A DNA stretch of 51,197 bases, taken from a virus. Its lineage: Duplodnaviria; Heunggongvirae; Uroviricota; Caudoviricetes. This document shows positions 4,531 to 35,320 of the stretch, piece by piece. The notes beneath the pieces were generated by a model, which ran no database searches, had not been told where the DNA came from, and worked only from the letters and a program-made list of their open reading frames with translations. How positions within the stretch are numbered: position 1 is the stretch's first letter; every line of letters starts with the position of its first letter. The position numbers and the translations under genes were made by a program. The stretch is taken from positions 64,001 to 115,197 of IMG/VR virus record IMGVR_UViG_3300005323_000039, one strand, 5' to 3'.

Positions 4531-4603
4531 TGCGCTCGGAGAGATTCGAACTCTCGCCACCTGCTCGGCAAGCAGATATTCTACCAGACTATATTACGAG
4601 CGC
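4531..4603 (-). tRNA. tRNA-Gly(GCC)
   Basis: Acceptor GCGCTCG/CGAGCGC-A, anticodon arm TCTGC-TTGCCGA-GCAGG, T-arm GAGAG-TTCGAAT-CTCTC; CCA not encoded. Confidence 0.95.
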
Positions 4604-4627
4604 GCCAATTTACGCAAATTCTGTGAA

Positions 4628-4700
4628 TAGTCCTGCGAGGATTCGAACCTCGGTTGCTGAGTTCAAAGCCCAGTGTGATTGACCGCTACACTACAGGACT
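4628..4700 (-). tRNA. tRNA-Gln(TTG), archaeal type
   Basis: AGTCCTG/CAGGACT-A acceptor with A1-U72; anticodon arm CTGGG-CTTTGAA-CTCAG; T-arm CGAGG-TTCGAAT-CCTCG. Confidence 0.95.
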
Positions 4701-4713
4701 AATTGTTGTTAGT

Positions 4714-4929
4714 CTAATCATATAACACGATTGTTTCTACATTATATTTTGATACAAGGATTGTAAATGTCTCAATTGATTTAGTAATAGGATTTTCATA
4801 AGAACGTTCCACGATAAACATATCATGATCATCAATTGTTTTTGACCCTTTGTAAATTCCACATACTTCTTCACCAGATACCAATCCAAAGCAATATGAT
4901 TTTCCCCTTTCTAATTCATCTTTTGTCAT
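4714..4929 (-). CDS. hypothetical protein inside the tRNA cluster
   Basis: 71 aa, GAGGT ribosome-binding site upstream. Confidence 0.6.
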   Translation of the reverse strand: MTKDELERGKSYCFGLVSGEEVCGIYKGSKTIDDHDMFIVERSYENPITKSIETFTILVSKYNVETIVLYD

Positions 4930-4952
4930 GTCGTACCTCTTGTTAAGTTGAA

Positions 4953-5073
4953 AGAGTGGGCCAGATTTGCACTGGTCCGTGTACTTTGTTTTCTACCGTT
5001 TGTTTGAAACAAACGATCTATCACGCCCATGCTGCCTAGCTTTATGGGAATCGAACCCTGGACGCCACCACTC
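4953..5073 (-). ncRNA. tRNA-like RNA (acceptor-like stem and T-arm around a non-tRNA core)
   Basis: GAGTGG/CCACTC closing stem, T-arm CCAG-TGCAAAT-CTGG, internal CCCAT/ATGGG and CGTTTGTT/AACAAACG hairpins; no canonical anticodon arm. Confidence 0.5.
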
Positions 5074-5145
5074 AGCCTTCGTACCACCAGATACAGTCCA
5101 AAAGGGAGCGACCCTTTCATACCTTCGTATCCAATATGTGCGAAA

Positions 5146-5229
5146 TGCCAACAGCAGGGCTCGAACCTGCGACCCTCTACGGGACCAGATCTTGAGTCTG
5201 GCGCGTTCTTCCATCTTCGCTATGTTGGC
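5146..5229 (-). tRNA. tRNA-Leu(CAA)
   Basis: GCCAACA/TGTTGGC-A acceptor, CCAGA-CTCAAGA-TCTGG anticodon arm, long variable arm, T-arm GCAGG-TTCGAGC-CCTGC; BRE-TATA at about 5258-5275. Confidence 0.95.
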
Positions 5230-5239
5230 TTCACTCTAG

Positions 5240-5881
5240 TTATACATATAACGAATCTACTATATATACTTTGTTGTTTTCAATCATAGCGTATCTGAAT
5301 CGCGATTTGCTTACATCCAAAGGATTGTACGGATCTACCATGTACAGATTGCTCAAATCATGACTGGAGTATTTGAATAGGGGTGGAGTGTGGCCACAGA
5401 CTTGCAACAATTTGTCATACGGGGCAGCATGGTTCGGTCTATACCACAGAGGACTGTCGTCGTGCCAATGTTCTATCAGATCCATTCCATTCAGAGTTTT
5501 TACAATTTCTTCGATTGGAGTATCGCTTGGAACAAATGTTTCAGATAAACCAGCGTGCGTTATGAGGACTTGATCATGTATAGCGACTATTTTGAATTCA
5601 TTCTGGCGCTCCTCCAATTCATCGTACAGACTCCAGCTATATGGGTCCTGAGGCCCGATAAATTGTTTTAAGACTATAGCAGCTTCGTGATTGCCCCACA
5701 ACATTTCTGCTCCACTCTGACTCAATAGTTTCCAACACTCTATTGGGTTGCATCCAATATCGATAAAATCTCCAGCAAAAATCAATCTGTCGTTGTGTTT
5801 ATCGTAATGTGAATGTGATAGAACGTTCTGGATGAGGTGAGGTTGAGCGTGTGCATCAGCTAAAACAATACAACGTGCCAT
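5240..5881 (-). CDS. calcineurin-like metallophosphoesterase
   Basis: DAH, GDFID, GNHE, THAG and GHTP motifs. Confidence 0.9.
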   Translation of the reverse strand: MARCIVLADAHAQPHLIQNVLSHSHYDKHNDRLIFAGDFIDIGCNPIECWKLLSQSGAEMLWGNHEAAIVLKQFIGPQDPYSWSLYDELEERQNEFKIVAIHDQVLITHAGLSETFVPSDTPIEEIVKTLNGMDLIEHWHDDSPLWYRPNHAAPYDKLLQVCGHTPPLFKYSSHDLSNLYMVDPYNPLDVSKSRFRYAMIENNKVYIVDSLYV

Positions 5882-5887
5882 CTTAAC

Positions 5888-6136
5888 CTACTCTATAGAC
5901 GTATCGTTTATTGCCTTCAATATGAACGATTCAGGTGCATCTTCTCCGTAAAAATGGACCAATACTTCGTCATCTGCTAACATTTCATCAGATTCGTATA
6001 CGCGAGTGTATCCTCCGTCACGATTTGGTCCTATCAATCTATAGTTAAGATTCTTTCTACCAGTTCGTATTATTTCGACACCATCTGAATTATCAATAAC
6101 ATCTAATTGCTCATCTGTTATTATGTAACGTTCCAT
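5888..6136 (-). CDS. hypothetical protein
   Basis: 82 aa, GGTGA ribosome-binding site, co-oriented with neighbours. Confidence 0.6.
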   Translation of the reverse strand: MERYIITDEQLDVIDNSDGVEIIRTGRKNLNYRLIGPNRDGGYTRVYESDEMLADDEVLVHFYGEDAPESFILKAINDTSIE

Positions 6137-6321: not shown

Positions 6322-6401
6322 GAACCTTGCCTCACCTCGCCATACCACACCGTATCGAACCTATCCGAACCGAACCCAAACAAACCCAGTCGAACCACAT
6401 C
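6322..6401 (-). ncRNA. stand-alone GGY-NN pentamer array (array A; candidate guide RNA)
   Basis: 16 in-phase 5-nt units, 11 with GGY: gatGT ggtTC gacTG ggtTT gttTG ggtTC ggtTC ggaTA ggtTC gatAC ggtGT ggtAT ggcGA ggtGA ggcAA ggtTC; own promoter and T-tract. Confidence 0.85.
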
Positions 6402-6476: not shown

Positions 6477-7031
6477 ATGACTCTGATAAAATTGACTGCT
6501 TATAATGCATGGCGTCGTGGATTCATAACCGATGACCAATATGAAGTTTATCTTCAGCAAAATCCAGATCCAGAACAAGAAATTATAATAAATTACGATG
6601 AACATTTGCACGAAGTTTATCTTGCTGACGTACATGTGCTCAAACGAGATCCTAATGCTTATATCGACTTAGTTTTTTCACTTGACGGAGCTGGTGCAGA
6701 AATAGCTGACGCAAAGAAAGCATATGCCAGATGTAACGTTAGTGGTAGGATTATTAAAGCAACTGTTCTAGCGGATCAATCAGGTTCAATCGCAATTGAT
6801 GTCTGGAAGAAGACTACATATCCTCCAGCGGATGGCGAATCAATTACAGCAAGCGCCGTTCCAACAATCACAACCAACGTTAGTTCAGAGGATGCAACAT
6901 TGACAGGCTGGAACGTAATGGTCACAGCTGGAGATTACTTCATTGCTAACGTCGATTCTTGTACAACAATAACACATGCTGAACTCATTCTAACGATTGA
7001 ACCTGCTGTACAATATGTCCGGATCGTTTAG
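6477..7031 (+). CDS. virion protein (N-terminal RRGxIT module plus beta-sandwich)
   Basis: C-terminal domain paralogous to 7046-7864 (ADQSGSI..D.WK...YPP....SITA.AVPTI). Confidence 0.65.
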   Translation: MTLIKLTAYNAWRRGFITDDQYEVYLQQNPDPEQEIIINYDEHLHEVYLADVHVLKRDPNAYIDLVFSLDGAGAEIADAKKAYARCNVSGRIIKATVLADQSGSIAIDVWKKTTYPPADGESITASAVPTITTNVSSEDATLTGWNVMVTAGDYFIANVDSCTTITHAELILTIEPAVQYVRIV

Positions 7032-7045
7032 AGGGAGCGTACTTT

Positions 7046-7864
7046 ATGGCTAACATTAGCGCGATGAGCTTGAGTAGAGGTGACATCCTTACAACTTCTC
7101 ACATTGACTCAATTGCTAGAGGCTCCCAAGATATTGGTGTAAGGGACGGTTGTAATGTTGGAGCGCAAGCAGTTCCTGACATGACCGTCAAACTGGACGC
7201 AGGCAATGTACTAATTGGAGGCGTTCTAAAAGTTGTTGCAGGCAATAACGTTACAATTTCTGCTGCAGACCCTACAAACCCTCGTATCGATATAATCTAT
7301 GTAGATGTGAATGGAGTGGGGCAAGTGTATACTGGAGCAGCGGGAGTTATTGCACCTGTTGGAGAAACGGACTGGAAGAAATTTACTGTACCGTATCCTG
7401 GGGCGACAATACCCACAGGTGTCCCTCTTGCAGAAGTTCATGTTGGAGCGGGAGCAACTTCAATCACCGGAGCGAATGTTAGATCGCTTGCCACCTACGT
7501 TAGAACGTATCGGCGTCAAATCCAAGTCATAATTGACGGAGGTGGAGTTGCCATTGAGACGGGAGTGAAAGCGCGCCTCCACATGGGATACCCTTGTACG
7601 ATTAAGAGTGTGACTATGGGAGCGGACCAATCAGGCTCCATTGTAGTGGACATCTGGAAAGATACGTATGCGAATTACCCCCCAACGGACGCAGATTCGA
7701 TAACAGCAGCAGCAGTTCCAACGATATCCGCGACAAACAAATATCAGAATACTACGTTGGTTGGCTGGACAACGTCCATTACCGCAGACGACTGGCTATT
7801 CTTCAATGTAGATAGTTGTTCGTCGATTACTCAGTGCGTTGTAGACCTCATCGTGGAAACTTAA
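7046..7864 (+). CDS. virion/tail-associated protein
   Basis: AAD..NPRIDII motif and DGGG..I.TG.K...ADQSGSIVVDIWKD domain typical of phage virion proteins. Confidence 0.7.
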   Translation: MANISAMSLSRGDILTTSHIDSIARGSQDIGVRDGCNVGAQAVPDMTVKLDAGNVLIGGVLKVVAGNNVTISAADPTNPRIDIIYVDVNGVGQVYTGAAGVIAPVGETDWKKFTVPYPGATIPTGVPLAEVHVGAGATSITGANVRSLATYVRTYRRQIQVIIDGGGVAIETGVKARLHMGYPCTIKSVTMGADQSGSIVVDIWKDTYANYPPTDADSITAAAVPTISATNKYQNTTLVGWTTSITADDWLFFNVDSCSSITQCVVDLIVET

Positions 7865-8872
7865 ATGACCAATCTATACGTCCTCGGGAATGCCGGTAGT
7901 GCGCCATCGGGCTGGACCAAGATTACCACATACGACGGCTATTACCTAAGATTTGGTAATTCGTATGCGGGACATGGCACAACCGGAGGATCTGCTACTC
8001 ATACTCATGGTTCAAGTGGCGTGACAATTGGAAATTGTTCAGGATCCTCGTTTTATTTCAACCTAACTGGTACCAACATGATGAAAGTTCATAGTGGAAC
8101 TCTTAATATAACGTCTGGAACGTCCGGTTCAAACACGCCGCCATACTATGAACTGGAATTGTATAGAATTAACCTCACCACATGGGAAACATCACATAAA
8201 TATTTTCCAGTGGGTTCGATTCTTCTATCGGACAGTGTGCTTAGCGGATCAGAGATGTCTCGGTTCAGTTCGCCTGATGGTCGATTGTTGAAGTTCGGAA
8301 GTCCTGGATTGACTGGGGGCACAGCTGGTCACACCCATGCGGTAGCTGGTAATGTAAGTTGTACGTCTCTTAATCTGAGCGTGGGTTCCTACGACGATGG
8401 CGATGTTTCAAACCCCACTGATCATACGCATGCATGGAGTACAACCTCGAACAGTCAAGATGTAACACCGCTCAGACTTCAAACAAGATTCTACAGGGTA
8501 AACCAATTGGTAAATAGAGCTTTGACGGGTGCTATTTGCTTCGTAGATGATACACCATCAGCGAATTGGGACTTAATGTCTGGATGGAATGGATATTTCG
8601 CTGAGTCCTTAGACGGGTATACAACTACTGGCTCAAACGCACACGAGCATAATGGGTTGAGTACCACGTCAGCGAACTACACTGCTAGTGTCCTTAGGTA
8701 TAGGTCTGGCACGACAAGCAGAACGTTTGCTAATAGGCCTCATAATCACACTGTAGCATTCAATTTGGCATCTGCTGATCACACACCACAATACGTCACC
8801 TTGATTCCAGTCAAGCTGAATACAACACTATATCGCCCGATGGGACGTTCAATTTGCGTGTCGATGTGCTAA
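7865..8872 (+). CDS. tail fibre/collar-like protein
   Basis: Repeated GG...HxH motifs (GGSATHTH, GGTAGHTH, GSNAHEH, PHNH) as in metal-binding fibre needles. Confidence 0.65.
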   Translation: MTNLYVLGNAGSAPSGWTKITTYDGYYLRFGNSYAGHGTTGGSATHTHGSSGVTIGNCSGSSFYFNLTGTNMMKVHSGTLNITSGTSGSNTPPYYELELYRINLTTWETSHKYFPVGSILLSDSVLSGSEMSRFSSPDGRLLKFGSPGLTGGTAGHTHAVAGNVSCTSLNLSVGSYDDGDVSNPTDHTHAWSTTSNSQDVTPLRLQTRFYRVNQLVNRALTGAICFVDDTPSANWDLMSGWNGYFAESLDGYTTTGSNAHEHNGLSTTSANYTASVLRYRSGTTSRTFANRPHNHTVAFNLASADHTPQYVTLIPVKLNTTLYRPMGRSICVSMC

Positions 8873-8881
8873 GAGGCATCC

Positions 8882-9346
8882 ATGGACAAAGAACTCAAAA
8901 CCATCGTTAAAGAGAAGGGCGTTGAGCTACGTAACTTGATGGTTAAAAAAATCTACGATGGAGAAGGCATACCTCCGCCCAACGCACCTTCGACGATAAA
9001 ATCCAAAGGCTCTAGTCACACTCTAATCGATAATTCGACGCTCGTAACTTCAATTGATGTTTTCGAGGAGGACATCGGTACAGATTATATGGTACGCGTC
9101 GGAATAGAAGAAGAAGGAGTTGCTGAATATGCTGCGGCCAATGAATACGGTGTCGCTTGGGAAAATAGACCTAAAAAACGTATTAGATTTGAACCCAACG
9201 AACAATCTTCTGTAGAAGAGAACAAAGCGTGGTTTATTCCGCCCAGATCCTTTATGCGCAGTACGTATGATGAAAACATCGAACAAATTGTAATCGATGT
9301 TCAGAATGAATTTGATCAATGGGCGCAAAAGCGTTGGAAGAAATAA
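8882..9346 (+). CDS. neck/tail completion protein (Mu gpG/HK97 gp10-like)
   Basis: PPNAPSTIKSKGSSHTLIDN, YAAANEYG, IPPRSFMR motifs. Confidence 0.75.
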   Translation: MDKELKTIVKEKGVELRNLMVKKIYDGEGIPPPNAPSTIKSKGSSHTLIDNSTLVTSIDVFEEDIGTDYMVRVGIEEEGVAEYAAANEYGVAWENRPKKRIRFEPNEQSSVEENKAWFIPPRSFMRSTYDENIEQIVIDVQNEFDQWAQKRWKK

Positions 9347-9370
9347 ATTATATTTTTTTAATTGAAGCAT

Positions 9371-9470
9371 AATGTGACCGATGGTTTGAACCCTACTTGA
9401 CTCGGTCTACATCAAGTAGAGTACGTGTACACGGTCCTGACAGTTACCAAGCTGTCAGATACAACACACT
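9371..9470 (-). ncRNA. candidate structured ncRNA antisense to the tail operon
   Basis: 7-bp CTGACAG and 8-bp CTACTTGA hairpins, GACCG/CGGTC helix, T-loop-like GG-TTCAAA-CC; promoter CCACAAACTATAAATA at 9485-9500 is identical to one at about 37729-37744. Confidence 0.55.
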
Positions 9471-9563
9471 CTTGGTATACTTAGTATTTATAGTTTGTGG
9501 TTCGTGTGAGCCACTTTTACAAACAACTAACTAATTGACTAAATTTTAAAGGAGAATTTATAA

Positions 9564-10139
9564 ATGACTGCGACAGTTAACGTGGAAGAAGGGAATGGTG
9601 CAGGCCCGACCTGGACTGTAATAACGTCCGGCAGATATTGCACAAGAGATTCGTACAATCCTGGAGATAATGATCCTTGTGTTGTGCCAAGTGCAGGCAA
9701 CAATTATTCGTACTGGAAGAATCATCGAATCGCTTTTAGTGGAACCTTTACCAAAATTCTAAACATTAAATGGTATACTAGTGGGTCTGTAGCATCAAAT
9801 TGGGACCTTGGGACTGGCGGAGTTCTGTGCGTTGGCATAAGAGATTCTGGTGACAATGGATGTCCGACAGGATCTTATCAACAGGCTGCAGGAACGCAAG
9901 GCACTACAGGCAACTATATGGACCATGCGGTAAATGGCCACGCCTACTACAAAGATCAGACAGCCACCCCCGCAGATGCTGACTCTTACACATCTGCATC
10001 ACCTCTCACAATCGATAGTACTGAATATACTGTGGCCGGAAGCTCTAAACATGTCGTTACGCAGGTAAAGCTTGCAACTGATGCTGTTCAAGGCGATAAG
10101 GCCAACGAAACGATGACCTGGCTATATGATGAGATATGA
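9564..10139 (+). CDS. probable virion structural protein
   Basis: 191 aa, G/T/S/N-rich beta composition, strong AGGAG ribosome-binding site, inside the tail cluster. Confidence 0.55.
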   Translation: MTATVNVEEGNGAGPTWTVITSGRYCTRDSYNPGDNDPCVVPSAGNNYSYWKNHRIAFSGTFTKILNIKWYTSGSVASNWDLGTGGVLCVGIRDSGDNGCPTGSYQQAAGTQGTTGNYMDHAVNGHAYYKDQTATPADADSYTSASPLTIDSTEYTVAGSSKHVVTQVKLATDAVQGDKANETMTWLYDEI

Positions 10140-24781: not shown

Positions 24782-24841
24782 ATATCAAATTTCATCGTAT
24801 CCCGACGTATCTGATCCCATCTTATCTAATCAGAACGCATG
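24782..24841 (-). ncRNA. GAT-NN pentamer array C2
   Basis: 12 units, 8 GAT: catGC gttCT gatTA gatAA gatGG gatCA gatAC gtcGG gatAC gatGA aatTT gatAT. Confidence 0.8.
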
Positions 24842-24901
24842 ACTCCACTACTCGGAGTCTAAGTTGGATATGAGGTATGAATTCAATATCCAACACACTG
24901 C

Positions 24902-24966
24902 GCATCGCATCAAATTATATCCCATCTTATCTAATCAAATCACGTTTCATCTCATCTCGTCGCATA
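24902..24966 (-). ncRNA. GAT-NN pentamer array C1
   Basis: 13 units, 9 GAT: tatGC gacGA gatGA gatGA aacGT gatTT gatTA gatAA gatGG gatAT aatTT gatGC gatGC. Confidence 0.8.
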
Positions 24967-24983
24967 AATGTCAAATATTAAAT

Positions 24984-25253
24984 TTATTCCTCGATGATTT
25001 CTCCATACCATTCTTTGGGCGCTTTTGATCGTAACTCACTATAAAAGTTTGTAAGATCGGCACGAATTTGCTTTAATACAACAGATGTCAATTGTTCGAT
25101 AATGCCTGGTATATTATGATCATCTGTTACATGTTCTTCGTATATGTTGGTCAATTCTTCTATTTTGAGACCAATTTCACGCAATTTTGATAATTCATCT
25201 CGACTTATTTCAATACTGGATGTCATTGTAACACCTGAAATATGAGCAATCAA
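24984..25253 (-). CDS. small helical accessory protein of the RAMP operon
   Basis: 89 aa, translationally coupled to 25254-25757. Confidence 0.6.
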   Translation of the reverse strand: MIAHISGVTMTSSIEISRDELSKLREIGLKIEELTNIYEEHVTDDHNIPGIIEQLTSVVLKQIRADLTNFYSELRSKAPKEWYGEIIEE

Positions 25254-25757
25254 TCATTCGAATTTTGGTTTAATTGGTACTGAACTTACACCACTTTCAT
25301 GTCTACCAGACTTAGGAGATCGTAATGAATCGTACATTGTTTTTACAGTTCCAAGCATTCCACGTCTGACAGACAACTGTGCTCTGTCGGATTCCGGCAT
25401 CAAGTGTTCGATTCTGGACGCAATATTGCACGCTCTGAATCCTCTATCAGCGGCTCTGGCTGCCCTTGACCATTTGTTGTTTACGATGATTGTGGCATTT
25501 TTGCCACCAATCAATTCTATGCCATCTCCTTTGTAGCAATGATACTCGATTTCCATTTTGTACAATACACGACGCATTAAATCTTTTCCATCAGTATCCA
25601 TAACGATTTCAGTGTCGTTTTCGATTTGCTTGTACGATAGGAATTTGCCCATAGGCTTATCTGAAAAATATGTATGGAGTTTGACGTATTCCGCTGAAGG
25701 CATACGTCCTTTGCTCGTTTTTGATTTTTTAGATTTGGTCACTTTTTCACCAACCAA
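25254..25757 (-). CDS. basic accessory protein, possible winged-helix DNA binder
   Basis: Overlaps the RAMP gene stop; GKFLSYKQIENDT...LMRRVL..MEIEY.C..G.GIEL pattern. Confidence 0.55.
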   Translation of the reverse strand: MVGEKVTKSKKSKTSKGRMPSAEYVKLHTYFSDKPMGKFLSYKQIENDTEIVMDTDGKDLMRRVLYKMEIEYHCYKGDGIELIGGKNATIIVNNKWSRAARAADRGFRACNIASRIEHLMPESDRAQLSVRRGMLGTVKTMYDSLRSPKSGRHESGVSSVPIKPKFE

Positions 25758-26302
25758 TTAACGTTTTTGACAGAGAATCTTCCGAACCATCCACGTCTTT
25801 CTGGTCGAAACATTCCAATTCCAATAAACATACCACTAGTTTTGAGATGTTCGATGAAAACATCGCGTGTTATGACTTCATCGAATATGTTGTAGCGAAC
25901 TGTACCTTGCCATTTATCCACAACAGGAAAACATCTATATACTCGGGTGCTTCCACCGACCTTACCATCTGCAGGTACATAAAGCCAATTTGGACGCAAT
26001 CCATCCTTTTTCATGGGAAGTACCAGAGGATCTACGACCATTATTGCTGCATCGAACTTCTTCTTGAATGTTTTGTTTCGCTCACCGGGAACCTTCTTGC
26101 TCATGTATCCTGCAGCACCTTTGATCGAATTAGAAAACATTTCGGGTGGTATTATTACATTACCGTCGGAATCGTAGTGTGCACGATCTTGCCAATGAGT
26201 TTGTTCCCACTCTTCGAATGGCTTTGTTGCGTTCCCTGCATATTTTCCAAACTGCAAAGGTGTTGTACCTTCCAACAAACATTCAGCTATTATTTCTATC
26301 AT
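25739..26302 (-). CDS. Cas7/RAMP-like protein 2 (Vipr-like), linked to GAT-NN arrays
   Basis: N-terminal LEGTTPL strand, VIIPPEMFSNSIKGAA helix, C-terminal Gly loop GMFIGIGMFRPERRGWFGRFSV; alignable to 32831-33397. Confidence 0.75.
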   Translation of the reverse strand: MIEIIAECLLEGTTPLQFGKYAGNATKPFEEWEQTHWQDRAHYDSDGNVIIPPEMFSNSIKGAAGYMSKKVPGERNKTFKKKFDAAIMVVDPLVLPMKKDGLRPNWLYVPADGKVGGSTRVYRCFPVVDKWQGTVRYNIFDEVITRDVFIEHLKTSGMFIGIGMFRPERRGWFGRFSVKNVNWLVKK

Positions 26303-26313
26303 GTAAATACCTC

Positions 26314-26388
26314 ATGTCTTGACTCAAATGGTCGTATCGCATCCAATCAAATCCAATTCTATCATATCGCATTTTATATGATCGCATC
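26314..26388 (-). ncRNA. GAT-NN pentamer array D in the leader of RAMP gene 2
   Basis: 12 core units (8 GAT) gatGC gatCA tatAA aatGC gatAT gatAG aatTG gatTT gatTG gatGC gatAC gacCA plus 3 degenerate units ending at the GAGGT ribosome-binding site. Confidence 0.8.
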
Positions 26389-31146: not shown

Positions 31147-31620
31147 ATGTACGTTTATAGTATTTCTAGTGGAGAGGGTGGAGACCTCCTCACAAATATG
31201 TCAATGGGAGCGGGCAGAGTTAGGTGTCACAGCAACTTGGACTTAGTAACCACCCTTACCGGAGATATTGCCATTACTCCAGATGATGTTACAAACTATC
31301 GTCAACGGTTGTTTATGTGGCTAGCGACGCCCAAAGGCGAACGAATTGACCCTTCAGTAGGTTGTTGTTTATACGATTTTTTACATAACAAAGCAACGTC
31401 AACTACAGCGAGAACATTGGAATTGTATCTAGCATCAGACCTAGCAGTTGCATTTCCTGAATTGGATGTTAAGAGTGTACGTTGCAAGCTCTCCAGTGAC
31501 AATAGGACTTTTAGCGTGGACGTCAAATTAGGTGACGAATCATTAACGTTCCTTTTTAGTGATAACGATTTGCTTAATATTAGCTCACAGTTGGCCGAAG
31601 TTTACTCGATTACAGGGTAA
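31147..31620 (+). CDS. baseplate wedge gp25/gpW-like protein
   Basis: RQRLFMWLATPKGERIDPSVGC.L motif. Confidence 0.85.
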   Translation: MYVYSISSGEGGDLLTNMSMGAGRVRCHSNLDLVTTLTGDIAITPDDVTNYRQRLFMWLATPKGERIDPSVGCCLYDFLHNKATSTTARTLELYLASDLAVAFPELDVKSVRCKLSSDNRTFSVDVKLGDESLTFLFSDNDLLNISSQLAEVYSITG

Positions 31621-31637
31621 AAAGTGGAAAAATGGAG

Positions 31638-32015
31638 TTAGTGAGCAACTTGAGCCGCAGCTGCTAATATTTTGTTGATAACAACGTATTCGGGAGCGAG
31701 TATGGCAAGCATTGGGTCGTGTAAAGTTGACCATACAATTGATGCTATAATGGCATATGCAAAAAACGATCCAATGATACCAATGAATATTGCAATTATT
31801 GCAAAATCTCCATCATTTTCGCCTTCTTTCCACAGCCATTGCCACAAATATTTAACGGCAATTAACGTTATGACTAAAGACAAAGCGTTACAAGCAAGAC
31901 TAGCTGCTCCGTCCATTGCTGTGCCTCGAACGGCCACCTCATACGAATAGAGGGAGGCGTTCTGAGCTCCATTCAACAATCCGTTGAGTAATTCTAACTC
32001 CTGAGGATTCAACAT
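31638..32015 (-). CDS. membrane protein
   Basis: Two hydrophobic helices, LLAPEY-like end. Confidence 0.6.
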   Translation of the reverse strand: MLNPQELELLNGLLNGAQNASLYSYEVAVRGTAMDGAASLACNALSLVITLIAVKYLWQWLWKEGENDGDFAIIAIFIGIIGSFFAYAIIASIVWSTLHDPMLAILAPEYVVINKILAAAAQVAH

Positions 32016-32043
32016 ACAATCTACTCCATACTTTGTTTAACAT

Positions 32044-32724
32044 CTAACGATGGCAGTCAACCACGACTAATATGTCATCTGGTCTGCACGTCATGACTAA
32101 CTGGTAAAATTCTGACTGCCATTGTTCTTCTGGCTTGTACTCACCATGATGCCAGTTCTCGTGCCATACTCCACCCTTCAATACAGCGTATGTTGGATGC
32201 ACTTTGGCAGTTCTTTGTGCATACGATTCGCATGTGTCACCTTCCTGAATTCCAGACATGTCGCGAATTGATTGTACGGCTTCGTCAGAGTCGCCATGTC
32301 GTTCGATCATTTCACACCACATATCGTACGATTTGAGACAATCTTCATAGGATCTCTGGAGCATGGAATCCCAATCGATTAGGTCGAATGGAGCAAATGA
32401 ACTCTCTACAACAACCTTTGAAGGTAACTGGTCAATAGCTACTTCATCTGAGCCATTAGACGTCAATTGGAGGTTGCGTAACACTACAACCTTCGTTATA
32501 AAGTATCCACGATATCTGCCGCCTACTTCATACTCTGCCCACTTTCCGTTCGGATTATCGTAATAGATTTCACCATCATCATCCACAATTTTGCAACTTC
32601 TGGAGTCAAGTTTTGCTTCCTCGTTGTCCATGTTTGCTCCAAGTATCTCGAAAGGATGCATAACGTCTTCCAGAGTTTGTGTGCTGCTAGCTGGAATTAT
32701 TACAAGCACTGACGTATGAGTCAT
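32044..32724 (-). CDS. conserved phage protein of unknown function
   Basis: MTH.SVLVI, NPNGKW..Y.VGGR, YAVL..G.W.E, VVVDCH motifs. Confidence 0.75.
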   Translation of the reverse strand: MTHTSVLVIIPASSTQTLEDVMHPFEILGANMDNEEAKLDSRSCKIVDDDGEIYYDNPNGKWAEYEVGGRYRGYFITKVVVLRNLQLTSNGSDEVAIDQLPSKVVVESSFAPFDLIDWDSMLQRSYEDCLKSYDMWCEMIERHGDSDEAVQSIRDMSGIQEGDTCESYAQRTAKVHPTYAVLKGGVWHENWHHGEYKPEEQWQSEFYQLVMTCRPDDILVVVDCHR

Positions 32725-32830
32725 CTGAACACCTACTGCCTCTAATACGTATTAATGCTATTTATAGTTTGTTAAAGTCATAAACAGTTTGACCAAAAGT
32801 TATAAATAATAGAACTACGTTTCAAGTACG

Positions 32831-33397
32831 GTGATTTTGTTGAACACCCTTTCGAAACGTTTTAATGTAGGAATTCGCGGCACGCGCCCTCTTGTCATGC
32901 ATTCAACTCGCGTTATGATGCAAGAGAAATCTGGTCGCGGCGACAGAATGACTGCAGAACAAGAAGTTGAATTATCCTTGTATAAGGATTCATCTGGTAG
33001 TATAGTTGTTCCATCTGAATGCATATTGGCGTGTATGAAAGCTGCAGCAAGTGACTACAAAGTTCCTGGCAAAGGCAAAAAGACATTCAAACAATACACT
33101 GATTCAGGACTCGATATCGAACCAACGATGCCAATTCTTCAATCAGACGGATACGTAACGGATTTGCGTCCTGTTGTCGTACAGAAATCCAGAATTATAA
33201 GAGCTCGCCCCAAATTCGAAAATTGGTCTGTGGAATTTACAATCGTTGTAAATGATTCACTTTGGTTAGACAGCAGTGGTGGTGGCAGAGTTATACGCGA
33301 AATACTGGAATCTGCCGGAAAGTACAAAGGCTTGTTAGAAATGAGACCAAGATTTGGTCGTTTTGAAGTCACAAAATTCGAAGAATCTCCCGACTAA
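32831..33397 (+). CDS. Cas7/RAMP-like protein 1 (Vipr-like), linked to GGY-NN arrays
   Basis: IRGTRPLVMH, LYKDSSG.IVVPSECILACMKAAA, VPGKGKKTFK, RIIRARPKF.NW, AGKYKGLLEMRPRFGRFEV Gly loop; BRE-TATA at about 32792-32808. Confidence 0.8.
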   Translation: MILLNTLSKRFNVGIRGTRPLVMHSTRVMMQEKSGRGDRMTAEQEVELSLYKDSSGSIVVPSECILACMKAAASDYKVPGKGKKTFKQYTDSGLDIEPTMPILQSDGYVTDLRPVVVQKSRIIRARPKFENWSVEFTIVVNDSLWLDSSGGGRVIREILESAGKYKGLLEMRPRFGRFEVTKFEESPD

Positions 33398-33415
33398 AGG
33401 AGATCTAATCATTCT

Positions 33416-33440
33416 GGTTCGGTTTGGTAAGGTATGGCTT
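33416..33440 (+). repeat. short GGY-NN array B0 (5 units)
   Basis: ggtTC ggtTT ggtAA ggtAT ggcTT, 18 nt after the RAMP stop; contains the ATG of the next ORF. Confidence 0.8.
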
Positions 33441-33748
33441 CATTAGTCAGATGTTGTGAACCGACATCTCTAGAATTGATTGTTCGCGAGGCATTGAAGT
33501 CTCGCAACATTCAATTTTTGGAGCAAGTTCCCACGAGGTCTGGATTTGTGTTAGATTTTCTTGTTGGAGAACATCTAGTGATTGAAGTTGACGGTCCTTG
33601 CCATGACAGTAGCAAGAGTCGAAAAAGGGATCGTTTTAGAGATAGAATTTTGCGAAACGAAGGATATAAAGTATACAGAATGAATTATTCCACCATAAAC
33701 AATACTCAAAACTTTAATTCAACGTTAGATTTTATCCTCTCTGCATAA
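33434..33748 (+). CDS. DUF559/Vsr-like (EDxHD-type) endonuclease
   Basis: LE.IV..AL....I.F.EQ...GF.LDFL....LVIEVDGPCH...RD..RD..L...GY.V.R. Confidence 0.85.
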   Translation: MASLVRCCEPTSLELIVREALKSRNIQFLEQVPTRSGFVLDFLVGEHLVIEVDGPCHDSSKSRKRDRFRDRILRNEGYKVYRMNYSTINNTQNFNSTLDFILSA

Positions 33749-33759
33749 GAGAGATATCC

Positions 33760-33846
33760 GGTACGTTGCGGCGTGGTAGGTTGGGGTTTGGTATGGTGAG
33801 GTTCGGTGTGTTTCGGTTCGGTGTGGTAGGGTTTTAATATAACCTT
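33760..33846 (+). ncRNA. GGY-NN pentamer array B with terminal hairpin (candidate guide RNA)
   Basis: 15 units, 12 GGY: ggtAC gttGC ggcGT ggtAG gttGG ggtTT ggtAT ggtGA ggtTC ggtGT gttTC ggtTC ggtGT ggtAG ggtTT; hairpin AGGGTT/AACCTT then T-tract. Confidence 0.88.
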
Positions 33847-33901
33847 CGTTTTCCTTTTTTCTCATATTTATTTCATTCAAATTCATTTAGGAGGATTATT
33901 T

Positions 33902-35320
33902 TTGGACATAAGATCCATCGAAACGATAAAAAATGAATTAAAAAGTTATCAAATGAGTCATCATATACGGCTGAGAGATTACAACCCTCTGAGTGTTTTG
34001 TCAGTTCTCAATGAAACGCTGGCAATACAGATTCAACTACTCGAAGAGTCCATCGATTCTGAAGTTCAATCGATAAATCCGTTGACGGCGACCGGCGAGA
34101 ATCTTGACGCCGTGATAATTGACAGACTACCCGCAGGCAGACAAGCAGGCACTCAAGCGGTCGGAACAATTACCTTCCGACGGAATTTGCCCGCAGCCGC
34201 TGTCGTGACTATTCCTACAGGTACGCAGGCCATCGCACTAGCAGACAACGGAGATTATTTGTGGTTCGAAACAACTGCTGTAGGCTCTATAGGAATAGGC
34301 GATAGTAGTGTTGTAGTGGCTGCACGCTCAATGCGTACAGGATTGAATGGCAACATTCCCGCATATTCTATCACTAGATTACCAGTGAGTATTGATGGCG
34401 TGGATTTTGTGGAAAATATTGCCAGCTATACAGGAGGCACAGATGAAGAATCCGATGATGATTTACGTGCAAGATATATATACGCTGTGCTTGTGCCTGG
34501 CCGAGCCACCCAACAACTGATCGAACAACATCTAACGGATTTGGAAACTGTACTTGAAGCCCACACATATACGCGAGCTCCAGGGGACGTTGAAATTGTT
34601 GTAGACACGACTACAGGCATTGGTTCAACTGATACGGATGTTGCTGCATGTATTGAAGAAAATATTGCGGCGGGAGTAGTTGCACGTGGTGTATTGGGCG
34701 CAAGTATATCTGGCGGAATTAATGTAGAATTGTCCGTATGTGCCGGAGGATTTTTATACGTTAGGCCAACCGTTCATATTCTAGCCGAAGAATCAATGAC
34801 AATAACTTATACAGATCACCTAGCACGGTCGCGTACAGGAACGTGTACTATTCCAGCGGGAACGATTGCAGGAAGTGCTGTAATCGCTACACTACAAGAC
34901 CCGAATGATAGAGTTGTCGAAATAAATGGAATATCCTACGTCGGGACTTCAACATACGATTTGCTCATGGGCATGGGAACATATCCTTGCTTGTACGTCA
35001 CTCCACGCATGGTATCAACAAATGTTACTGTTGCAATTGTTGATACTGCAACGCCAGAAGTTGGTCTTGCTGCTAACATAGAATCCTCTCTAACAGATTT
35101 TCTAGATGCTTATACCATTGGCGAAGATTTAGAGTATAGTGACCTCGTAAAATATATTTTTGTCGATTATGCTACAGGCAGAGCATTTGATGGCATTGAT
35201 CAGATAACTTCATGCGTCGTGACAGGCAACAGCACAACGATAAGTTCGTTCGGCCAGATTATCAATTTGGACGAAGATCAGCGCATCGAGCCTGGCAGCA
35301 TCACGATAACAATAACATAG
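33902..35320 (+). CDS. baseplate J/gp47-like protein
   Basis: ATGENLD, AGTQAVG.ITF, TG..GNIPA, GG.DEESDDDLRARY motifs. Confidence 0.92.
   Translation: MDIRSIETIKNELKSYQMSHHIRLRDYNPLSVLSVLNETLAIQIQLLEESIDSEVQSINPLTATGENLDAVIIDRLPAGRQAGTQAVGTITFRRNLPAAAVVTIPTGTQAIALADNGDYLWFETTAVGSIGIGDSSVVVAARSMRTGLNGNIPAYSITRLPVSIDGVDFVENIASYTGGTDEESDDDLRARYIYAVLVPGRATQQLIEQHLTDLETVLEAHTYTRAPGDVEIVVDTTTGIGSTDTDVAACIEENIAAGVVARGVLGASISGGINVELSVCAGGFLYVRPTVHILAEESMTITYTDHLARSRTGTCTIPAGTIAGSAVIATLQDPNDRVVEINGISYVGTSTYDLLMGMGTYPCLYVTPRMVSTNVTVAIVDTATPEVGLAANIESSLTDFLDAYTIGEDLEYSDLVKYIFVDYATGRAFDGIDQITSCVVTGNSTTISSFGQIINLDEDQRIEPGSITITIT

Follow-up and report, generated by a model that had tools for sequence, protein, structure and literature searches.

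The window analysed here, 51,197 nt of a tailed virus (Caudoviricetes; positions 64,001 to 115,197 of IMG/VR record IMGVR_UViG_3300005323_000039, a 115-kb contig), carries inside its baseplate operon a small cassette composed of the gene vipr, a gene for a mini-nuclease and an adjacent array of short repeats, array B; our subject is this cassette and the relation of array B to the baseplate J gene that lies just beyond it. Array B is made of 15 head-to-tail 5-nt units, in which a GGT, at times replaced by GTT or GGC, precedes two variable bases (NN), and GGTNN tracts are found 25 times in the window where 1.6 would be expected by chance. The positions of these and the other features discussed are collected in Table 1.

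Table 1. Features of the window, in window coordinates
Feature	Position	Strand	Remarks
Three tRNA genes	4531-5229	-	Gly-GCC, Gln-UUG, Leu-CAA
Array A, second GGY-type vrRNA	6322-6396	-	15 units, 26 kb from vipr and solo; its end is a mini-hairpin similar to that of array B
Three GAT/GAY-NN arrays	24782-26388	-	With the paralogous Vipr gene
Paralogous Vipr gene	25739-26302	-	187 aa; 29% identical to the 188-aa Vipr
Gene in baseplate W/gp25 position	31147-31620	+	46% and 37% identical to the genes abutting J in L065 and L066, respectively
vipr	32831-33397	+	188-aa Vipr protein (minimal RAMP/Cas7-like); structure, profile and PHROG matches
5-unit GGY-NN tract	33416-33440	+	Follows vipr and runs over the start codon of the nuclease gene (ATG at 33434)
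Accessory gene	33434-33748	+	104-aa Vsr-like/DUF559 (MTES_1575) mini-nuclease; Pfam DUF559, E 6e-10
Array B, vrRNA guide region	33760-33834	+	15 GGY-NN units; starts 12 nt past the accessory gene
vrRNA 3' end	33828-33863	+	6-bp hairpin (AGGGTT/AACCTT, one G-U pair), then T-rich tract; from sequence
Baseplate J gene	33902-35320	+	472 aa; TTG start at 33902; Pfam Baseplate_J, E 3.7e-20
Footprint of guide B in J	34049-34092	+	Codons 50-64; core 34070-34089 matches 13/14

Cassettes of this kind belong to VIPR (Viral Interference Programmable Repeat), a CRISPR-like system that uses RNA guides to target DNA and was first reported in 2026 (bioRxiv 10.64898/2026.04.26.720920, 10.64898/2026.04.26.720927 and 10.64898/2026.10.15.759431). 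According to these preprints, the system comprises the Vipr protein, a vrRNA and an accessory gene (vap), with reference loci in Escherichia phage SUSP1 and a Pseudomonas fulva prophage. Vipr is described there as a minimal RAMP protein with an RRM core, a glycine-rich loop and a thumb, whose protomers polymerize on a vrRNA of 9-16 GGY/NN (YNNGG) repeats such that GGY is hidden and NN presented; by a '1-nt skip rule' the NN pair with DNA and every third target base, usually the codon wobble position, is skipped. Either DNA strand can be addressed, and transcription is silenced from either. The vrRNAs of the SUSP1 clade have a conserved structured 3' tail, a pseudoknot, the accessory genes encode products as different as DNA-binding proteins and nucleases, and scaffolds other than GGY exist, such as GAC/NN (10.64898/2026.10.21.760802). 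The natural targets reported in the same texts are satellites, prophage regulators and rival VIPR loci, on which the action is silencing; they were called at a cut-off of at least 80% NN identity, at which the published survey saw no self hits, and the self-match of solo vrRNAs was reported to be lower than the non-self match. Types III-V, in which Vipr is joined by a predicted nuclease, have vrRNAs that hit viral sequences and are enriched in cellular defence islands, where they are described as host immunity.

Membership of the vipr product in this family is established by several comparisons. A profile built from 31 homologues matches PDB 36pp, 'SUSP1 Vipr protein', with an E-value of 1.6e-22, this being the one solved structure matched, and the single sequence finds the same entry with phmmer (E 6e-10); the glycine-rich loop regions of the two proteins can be aligned (GLLEMRPRFGRF in the window against GVGDWRPRFGRF in SUSP1). 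An AlphaFold (AF2) model of the protein (pLDDT 93.5) has Csm3/Cas7 backbone subunits as its top solved folds in Foldseek (E 6e-7). Both this protein and its paralogue are assigned to phrog_4652, a family of unknown function, and the Vipr family as a whole numbers 8174 representatives at 50% identity. The match to the solved Vipr structure rules out the first reading of the protein, as a TRAP-like ring protein or leader-RNA regulator. The architecture of the cassette is equally established and, judged by homology, array B belongs to a genuine vipr cassette of Vipr, Vsr/DUF559 mini-nuclease and vrRNA; it is very probably the functional vrRNA of a nuclease-type VIPR cassette. A DUF559 mini-nuclease also directly follows vipr in the related loci L074, L075, L076, L086 and L090.

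Array B is oriented as vipr is, and so are the 154 arrays in 51 of the 60 loci with Vipr homologues that were fetched for comparison. No Rfam family was found for the arrays, and blastn of the locus against phage records gave no match. The fold of array B itself is not significant (z 0.69); the hairpin that follows it also appears in the predicted fold and, together with the T-rich tract, would serve as the vrRNA tail or as a terminator. No pseudoknot is evident at this 3' end, where the sequence and its predicted fold show only the hairpin and T-rich tract. Since array B ends the vipr-nuclease transcription unit, ahead of the hairpin and T-rich tract, and since its NN content is repetitive (TC three times and GT three times), it could be thought a 3' untranslated region, terminator or decoy element that binds or titrates Vipr and is no guide at all. 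We consider this very improbable, given that its length and layout are those of characterized vrRNAs (9-16 units plus tail), that NN varies freely between related loci and GGY is kept, and that related arrays have demonstrable targets. The 5-unit tract upstream of the nuclease gene, whose position is occupied by full arrays in relatives (L075), could be a decayed vrRNA or a site for control of nuclease translation by Vipr.

The surroundings of the cassette show it to be part of an insertion. In contigs L065 and L066, which lack the cassette and are only 42-50% identical to the window virus, the orthologue of the gene in the W/gp25 position directly abuts J; in the window 2.3 kb separate the two, and therefore the stretch 31621-33901 is an insertion, which the vipr cassette shares with two minus-strand genes (31638-32724).

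The first-pass annotation, made from the letters of the DNA, had proposed that array B decodes to the neighbouring J gene with the skipped base on codon position 3, and this proposal was reproduced in its particulars. When the NN of units 2-11 are compared with the minus strand of 34061-34089, read as NNx, they match at 16 of 20 bases and in the core at 13 of 14, the sole core mismatch being a Leu codon TTG (34082-34084) where the guide expects CTN. Guide B is complementary to the J coding strand, the skipped base is the wobble position, and the decoding rule that had been derived from sequence alone is the published skip rule. No other site on either strand of the window reaches 16/20. Taken over all 15 units the guide matches its own J at 17 of 30 bases (57%), with two units mismatched completely (0/2) and no more than four consecutive perfect units.

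The position, phase and statistics of this match are established, and it is the location of the match, unlike its size, that is remarkable. Because 40% of shuffled guides equal the local-segment score somewhere in the 115-kb genome, the size must be called ordinary, and when the order of the ten chosen NN was shuffled, as the first-pass annotation had suggested, a match of at least 16/20 arose somewhere in the window in 5.2% of trials; near the array, however, such scores are rare. At mismatch penalties from 1 to 2 no other site in the 115-kb genome matches guide B locally as well as the J site, which lies 236 nt downstream of array B and is in wobble phase. Only 0.7% of 800-nt decoy windows score as well. 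Within 400 nt of the array the J score was reached by 22 of 5000 order-shuffled guides at penalty 1.5 and by 62 of 5000 at penalty 1 (0.4-1.2%), and by 33 of 5000 composition-matched random guides.

A similar arrangement recurs among the related cassettes, in each of which the guides were scanned against their own locus and compared with shuffled guides to obtain a z score. The strongest self-locus matches all fall 120-1030 nt downstream of the array, in a flanking gene and in wobble phase: in L132 (z 7.6, 282 nt), L129 (z 6.1, 840 nt), L090 (z 6.1, 350 nt), L075 (z 5.3, 122 nt) and L101 (z 3.9, 1031 nt). Over the whole guide, self identity amounts to 65-79% where the cassette has a nuclease (four of the five) and to 90% in L129; with the window included, the self-match of nuclease-type cassettes ranges from 57 to 79%. 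Synonymous switches between six-fold codons recur at the mismatches, at one Leu in the window, at Leu twice in L132 and at an Arg in L075. In the flank-matching guides of the window, L075, L090 and L132 the last two to five units at the 3' end never match the target, and these units may be a tail or handle, or the array calls may be over-extended. The accessory gene after vipr typically encodes a DUF559 or HNH nuclease of about 95-109 aa, and both kinds are too short for a separate DNA-binding domain. Cassettes that are otherwise alike can have either of two unrelated nuclease folds, HNH or Vsr/DUF559, in the accessory gene (L132, 6912-7211; L101, 6197-6484; window, 33434-33748).

The most telling of these cassettes is that of L090, which is orthologous to the cassette of the window (Vipr 41% and nuclease 55% identical). 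A 20-base pattern taken from its terminal guide matched five viral contigs where about 0.1 would be expected, and all five proved to hold homologues (87% and 55% identical) of the 409-aa gene that flanks the L090 cassette, matched at the homologous site; neither vipr nor the nuclease gene was found in the stretches of these contigs that were fetched. By blastn the flanks abut in L140 and L090 holds a clean insertion of 1389 bp, so that L090 and L140/L141 differ by presence or absence of the cassette at a precise intergenic site. These empty-site relatives match 12 units of the L090 guide perfectly, about 290 nt from the junction. Over guide units 1-14 the match is 26/28 in L138, L139 and L142 (the 55% identical homologues) against 22/28 in the carrier, L140 and L141 being left unscored over these units. 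In the relatives the sequence is FSGEIQKAEADELF or FSGEIQKAEADELY, two units falling on Ala codons GCN; L090 itself has CSGEIQKCECDELF, in which those codons are TGY; the otherwise conserved motif has thus changed from Ala to Cys at two units in the carrier, and each time both bases read by the guide were altered. The junction between L090 and L140 shows no gradient of identity (72.6% and 75.8% in the flanks against 68-76% elsewhere), which is neutral with respect to homing.

The same logic is seen in L075, whose terminal guide spells a conserved N-R-x-I-Y-N-N-x-H-E-V-F motif of the adjacent portal gene. Here too the cassette is polymorphic for presence and absence: the cassette-free L079 and L080 (82-83% identical) have CGA or CGG for Arg and GAG for Glu, in agreement with the guide, and the carrier has AGG (still Arg) and CAA at those positions; guide units 2-12 match at 20/22 in the cassette-free relatives against 18/22 in the carrier. 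Patterns from the L075 guide gave a single chance hit in a giant-virus contig and none in genomes, and the L132 guide pattern gave no viral hits. We suggest from these comparisons that the carrier alleles may be protected by substitutions at the site itself, namely two changes of GCN to TGY in L090, CGN to AGG and GAG to CAA in L075, and in the window TTG for CTN together with the two units of 0/2.

The first-pass annotation had held that guide B is truly aimed at the J gene of a related virus, the self allele being immune. We find this rather probable in the form that guide B was written against J of close cassette-free relatives and that the J of the carrier would be protected by divergence at the bases that the guide reads. 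We favour a J-directed guide because the J site is the unique best local match, because of its position and wobble phase, because a cassette-free allele matches better than the self allele, and because of the parallels in independent loci. The better allele is that of L065, the best among the sampled J alleles, which matches at 21/30 against 17/30 for self and has the Leu codon CTA. The closest J homologues among 5.8 billion proteins are about 51% identical. The site is a conserved J motif that most relatives read as S-[IV]-S-I-L-T-A-T-G.

Several results weigh against a J-directed guide. The full-length match to J is below the published 80% cut-off, and full-length scans of the 115-kb genome with the guides labelled A, B, C1, C2 and D all remain at shuffled-guide level, guide B reaching 20/30 away from J (a maximum which, lying below 80%, is in line with the published absence of self hits). 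By permutation the gain in L065 lacks significance (P 0.2-0.3). Among 45 J homologue proteins taken at their upper bound none could exceed 21/30 even with the best choice of codons, 24/30 being unreachable, and no allele with an NN match of at least 80% was found in J across IMG/VR, the JGI metagenomes and the GTDB genomes, where the hits were at chance level. The guide fits the self-specific residues 'NP' and not the family-typical 'SI', and therefore a true target has to belong to a close relative outside the sampled set. Several DUF559-type cassettes have no flank match, and in L090 the units at the 3' end of the guide are never matched, which holds even the non-self alleles to 78% over the full array.

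The search of viral databases that the first-pass annotation had called for came out at chance: the exact guide B pattern, used as two 16-base halves against viral contigs, gave 19 and 23 hits, a chance number, of which the best was 23/30 and none lay in J. The central ten units gave no hits in the metagenome and genome collections, and a relaxed 19-base pattern gave none in viruses and seven in metagenomes, all of them attributable to chance (MetK at 24/30, a UvrD-like helicase and non-coding frames). The first of these, the motif GYATDETEEMMPLTAV of S-adenosylmethionine synthetase in L068, a metagenome contig of 1306 bp, was rejected as a target since a match of 24/30 (80%) is a chance result given the search pattern; taken by itself, the 80% rule can thus lead to false targets. 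A guide-matching J allele is absent among the sampled relatives of the window virus, and we infer that such an allele exists and is as yet unsampled.

These results leave some room for the view that array B is a real vrRNA whose match to J is coincidental, its true target lying in an unsampled competitor, satellite or host sequence that has nothing to do with J. It is favoured by the chance-level scores just described, in which 20/30 arises elsewhere against 17/30 on J, and it is in keeping with the published natural targets. Nevertheless we regard it as unlikely, in view of the position of the best match so close to the array (p about 0.004-0.012) and in wobble phase, of the same adjacency in five independent loci with z scores of 3.9-7.6, and of the guides of L090 and L075, which match the flanking gene of cassette-free relatives.

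A different reading of the same adjacency is that guide B regulates its own J in cis, partial pairing at the start of J damping or timing the expression of the baseplate and tail genes. VIPR is reported to silence transcription from either strand, the array of the second vipr gene of this genome runs into that gene's own ribosome-binding site, and in L129 the guide has its 90% self-match to the downstream endolysin-like gene and the accessory protein has no recognizable nuclease. The L129 guide, of ten units (7279-7328), matches its own gene, which encodes CHAP and peptidoglycan-binding domains, at 18/20 (8168-8193), and judging from this match L129 may be a case of VIPR self-regulation of lysis timing. 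For the window, however, regulation in cis seems improbable to us: the self-match is but 57%, in short runs of perfect units, the nuclease of the cassette would make self-binding dangerous, every nuclease-type cassette has a self-match below 80%, the published survey records no self hits at 80% or above, and in L090 and L075 the carrier alleles differ from those of the relatives precisely at the guide positions.

If guide B is indeed directed at J of cassette-free relatives, its action might be pictured as follows. By homology with the characterized system, Vipr would polymerize along the transcript, one protomer to each GGY-NN unit, burying each GGY and displaying NN, which would bind double-stranded DNA and skip every third target base. 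As guide B is set in the codon register of a conserved J motif, 150-190 bp past the insertion point, the filament would bind the J allele of closely related viruses without the cassette, and the outcome there would be a cut by the nuclease or a block to transcription. The rival would be harmed in a mixed infection, and the cassette might copy itself into the broken genome, that is, by homing. The carrier's own J would have diverged below the match needed for targeting, through the change of Leu CTN to TTG and the complete mismatches at two units.

Why the target should stand beside the cassette can be understood in two ways, either as homing, with cutting followed by repair from the carrier, or as selection that keeps a 'poison' guide tightly linked to the allele serving as its 'antidote', and neither account appears in the VIPR texts searched. 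It is a possibility worth entertaining, although one on which we would not yet rely, that cassettes of Vipr and a nuclease of about 95-109 aa (Vsr/DUF559 or HNH) are viral RNA-guided homing elements, of which array B and J would be one pair. In such elements one guide would follow the codon register of the gene that neighbours the insertion site and spell a conserved motif of it as found in cassette-free relatives; the filament would bring the nuclease, the broken rival would be repaired from the carrier, and the cassette would spread together with its recoded, immune flank.

Known selfish elements offer close parallels. Free-standing homing endonuclease genes of phages, such as the seg and mob genes of T4 and F-CphI of cyanophage S-PM2, are small nuclease genes that lie between conserved genes and are present or absent at a precise site; in alleles lacking the insert, the adjoining gene contains the target at a distance of a few hundred bp, and the carrier is protected by substitutions. 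The cassette of the window would differ from these in that its specificity would come from an RNA-loaded Vipr filament and not from a DNA-binding domain of the nuclease, cleavage and copying being putative. The guide RNAs of TnpB and IscB direct cutting of the transposon-free site and so lead to RNA-guided homing or retention, and they resemble array B in that a selfish element carries an RNA guide for the DNA that, in genomes without the element, adjoins the site of insertion. In those systems, however, the guide is transcribed from the flank and pairs contiguously, whereas array B is recoded in a 5-nt scaffold and reads two bases of every three.

Within VIPR itself, the cassette agrees with the reference loci in its Vipr homologue, in the adjacent co-oriented GGY-NN array of 15 units and in an accessory gene directly downstream of vipr, as well as in the skip-one NN code, the skip at wobble positions, the addressability of either strand and a self-match lower than the non-self match. 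It differs from them in having a Vsr/DUF559 mini-nuclease in place of the DNA-binding vap1, in a vrRNA 3' end that is a small hairpin with no evident pseudoknot, in a host range that is probably archaeal, and in a candidate target that is the cassette's neighbour gene in cassette-free relatives and neither a satellite nor a prophage regulator nor a rival VIPR locus. With types III-V it shares the pairing of Vipr with a predicted nuclease, but it is placed inside a viral baseplate operon, and those types are described as immunity systems enriched in cellular defence islands.

The indication of an archaeal host comes from the relatives. L066 encodes a release factor of the aRF1/eRF1 type and an ERCC4 nuclease (5222-6136 and 8987-9601), and homologues are labelled Methanothrix/Methanosaeta and Pacearchaeota; on account of these genes and labels the host is probably a methanogenic archaeon.

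There are exactly three GGY arrays in the 115-kb contig, namely array B, the tract at 33416-33440 and array A. The best nearby match of array A, 17/22 in wobble phase, lies at 6582-6613 (centre about 6598), within the adjacent gene, which encodes a virion protein (6477-7031); at penalty 1 this match shares first place in the genome, and at stricter penalties it fades. The arrays with a GAT or GAY scaffold and the vipr gene that accompanies them make up a second, orthogonal VIPR-like system. One of them (26388-26329) runs into the paralogous vipr gene's own Shine-Dalgarno-like GAGG and ATG, an overlap that suggests autoregulation, and the other two (24961-24902 and 24831-24782) are in the 3' untranslated region, before the terminator. 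For the GAT-type guides no match was found near their own arrays and no target near or far.

The VIPR code has already been published, and it is the flank-directed, homing-like layout that appears to be new; neither flank targeting nor homing is mentioned in the VIPR texts searched. In the window, as in five or more independent cassettes related to it, a guide points to the adjacent gene, and in two of the related cassettes (L090 and L075) the empty-site relatives hold the better match and the carrier has been recoded at exactly the bases that the guide reads. Against a guide that is blind to wobble positions, the routes of escape are six-fold codon switches at Leu and Arg and double-base substitutions. 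If the proposal is correct, it would link VIPR to selfish spread in the manner of homing endonucleases and TnpB, would give a reason for the bare nuclease domains in these cassettes, and would provide a rule for predicting the targets of vrRNAs in uncultured viruses, which would be sought in the flank of their cassette-free kin.

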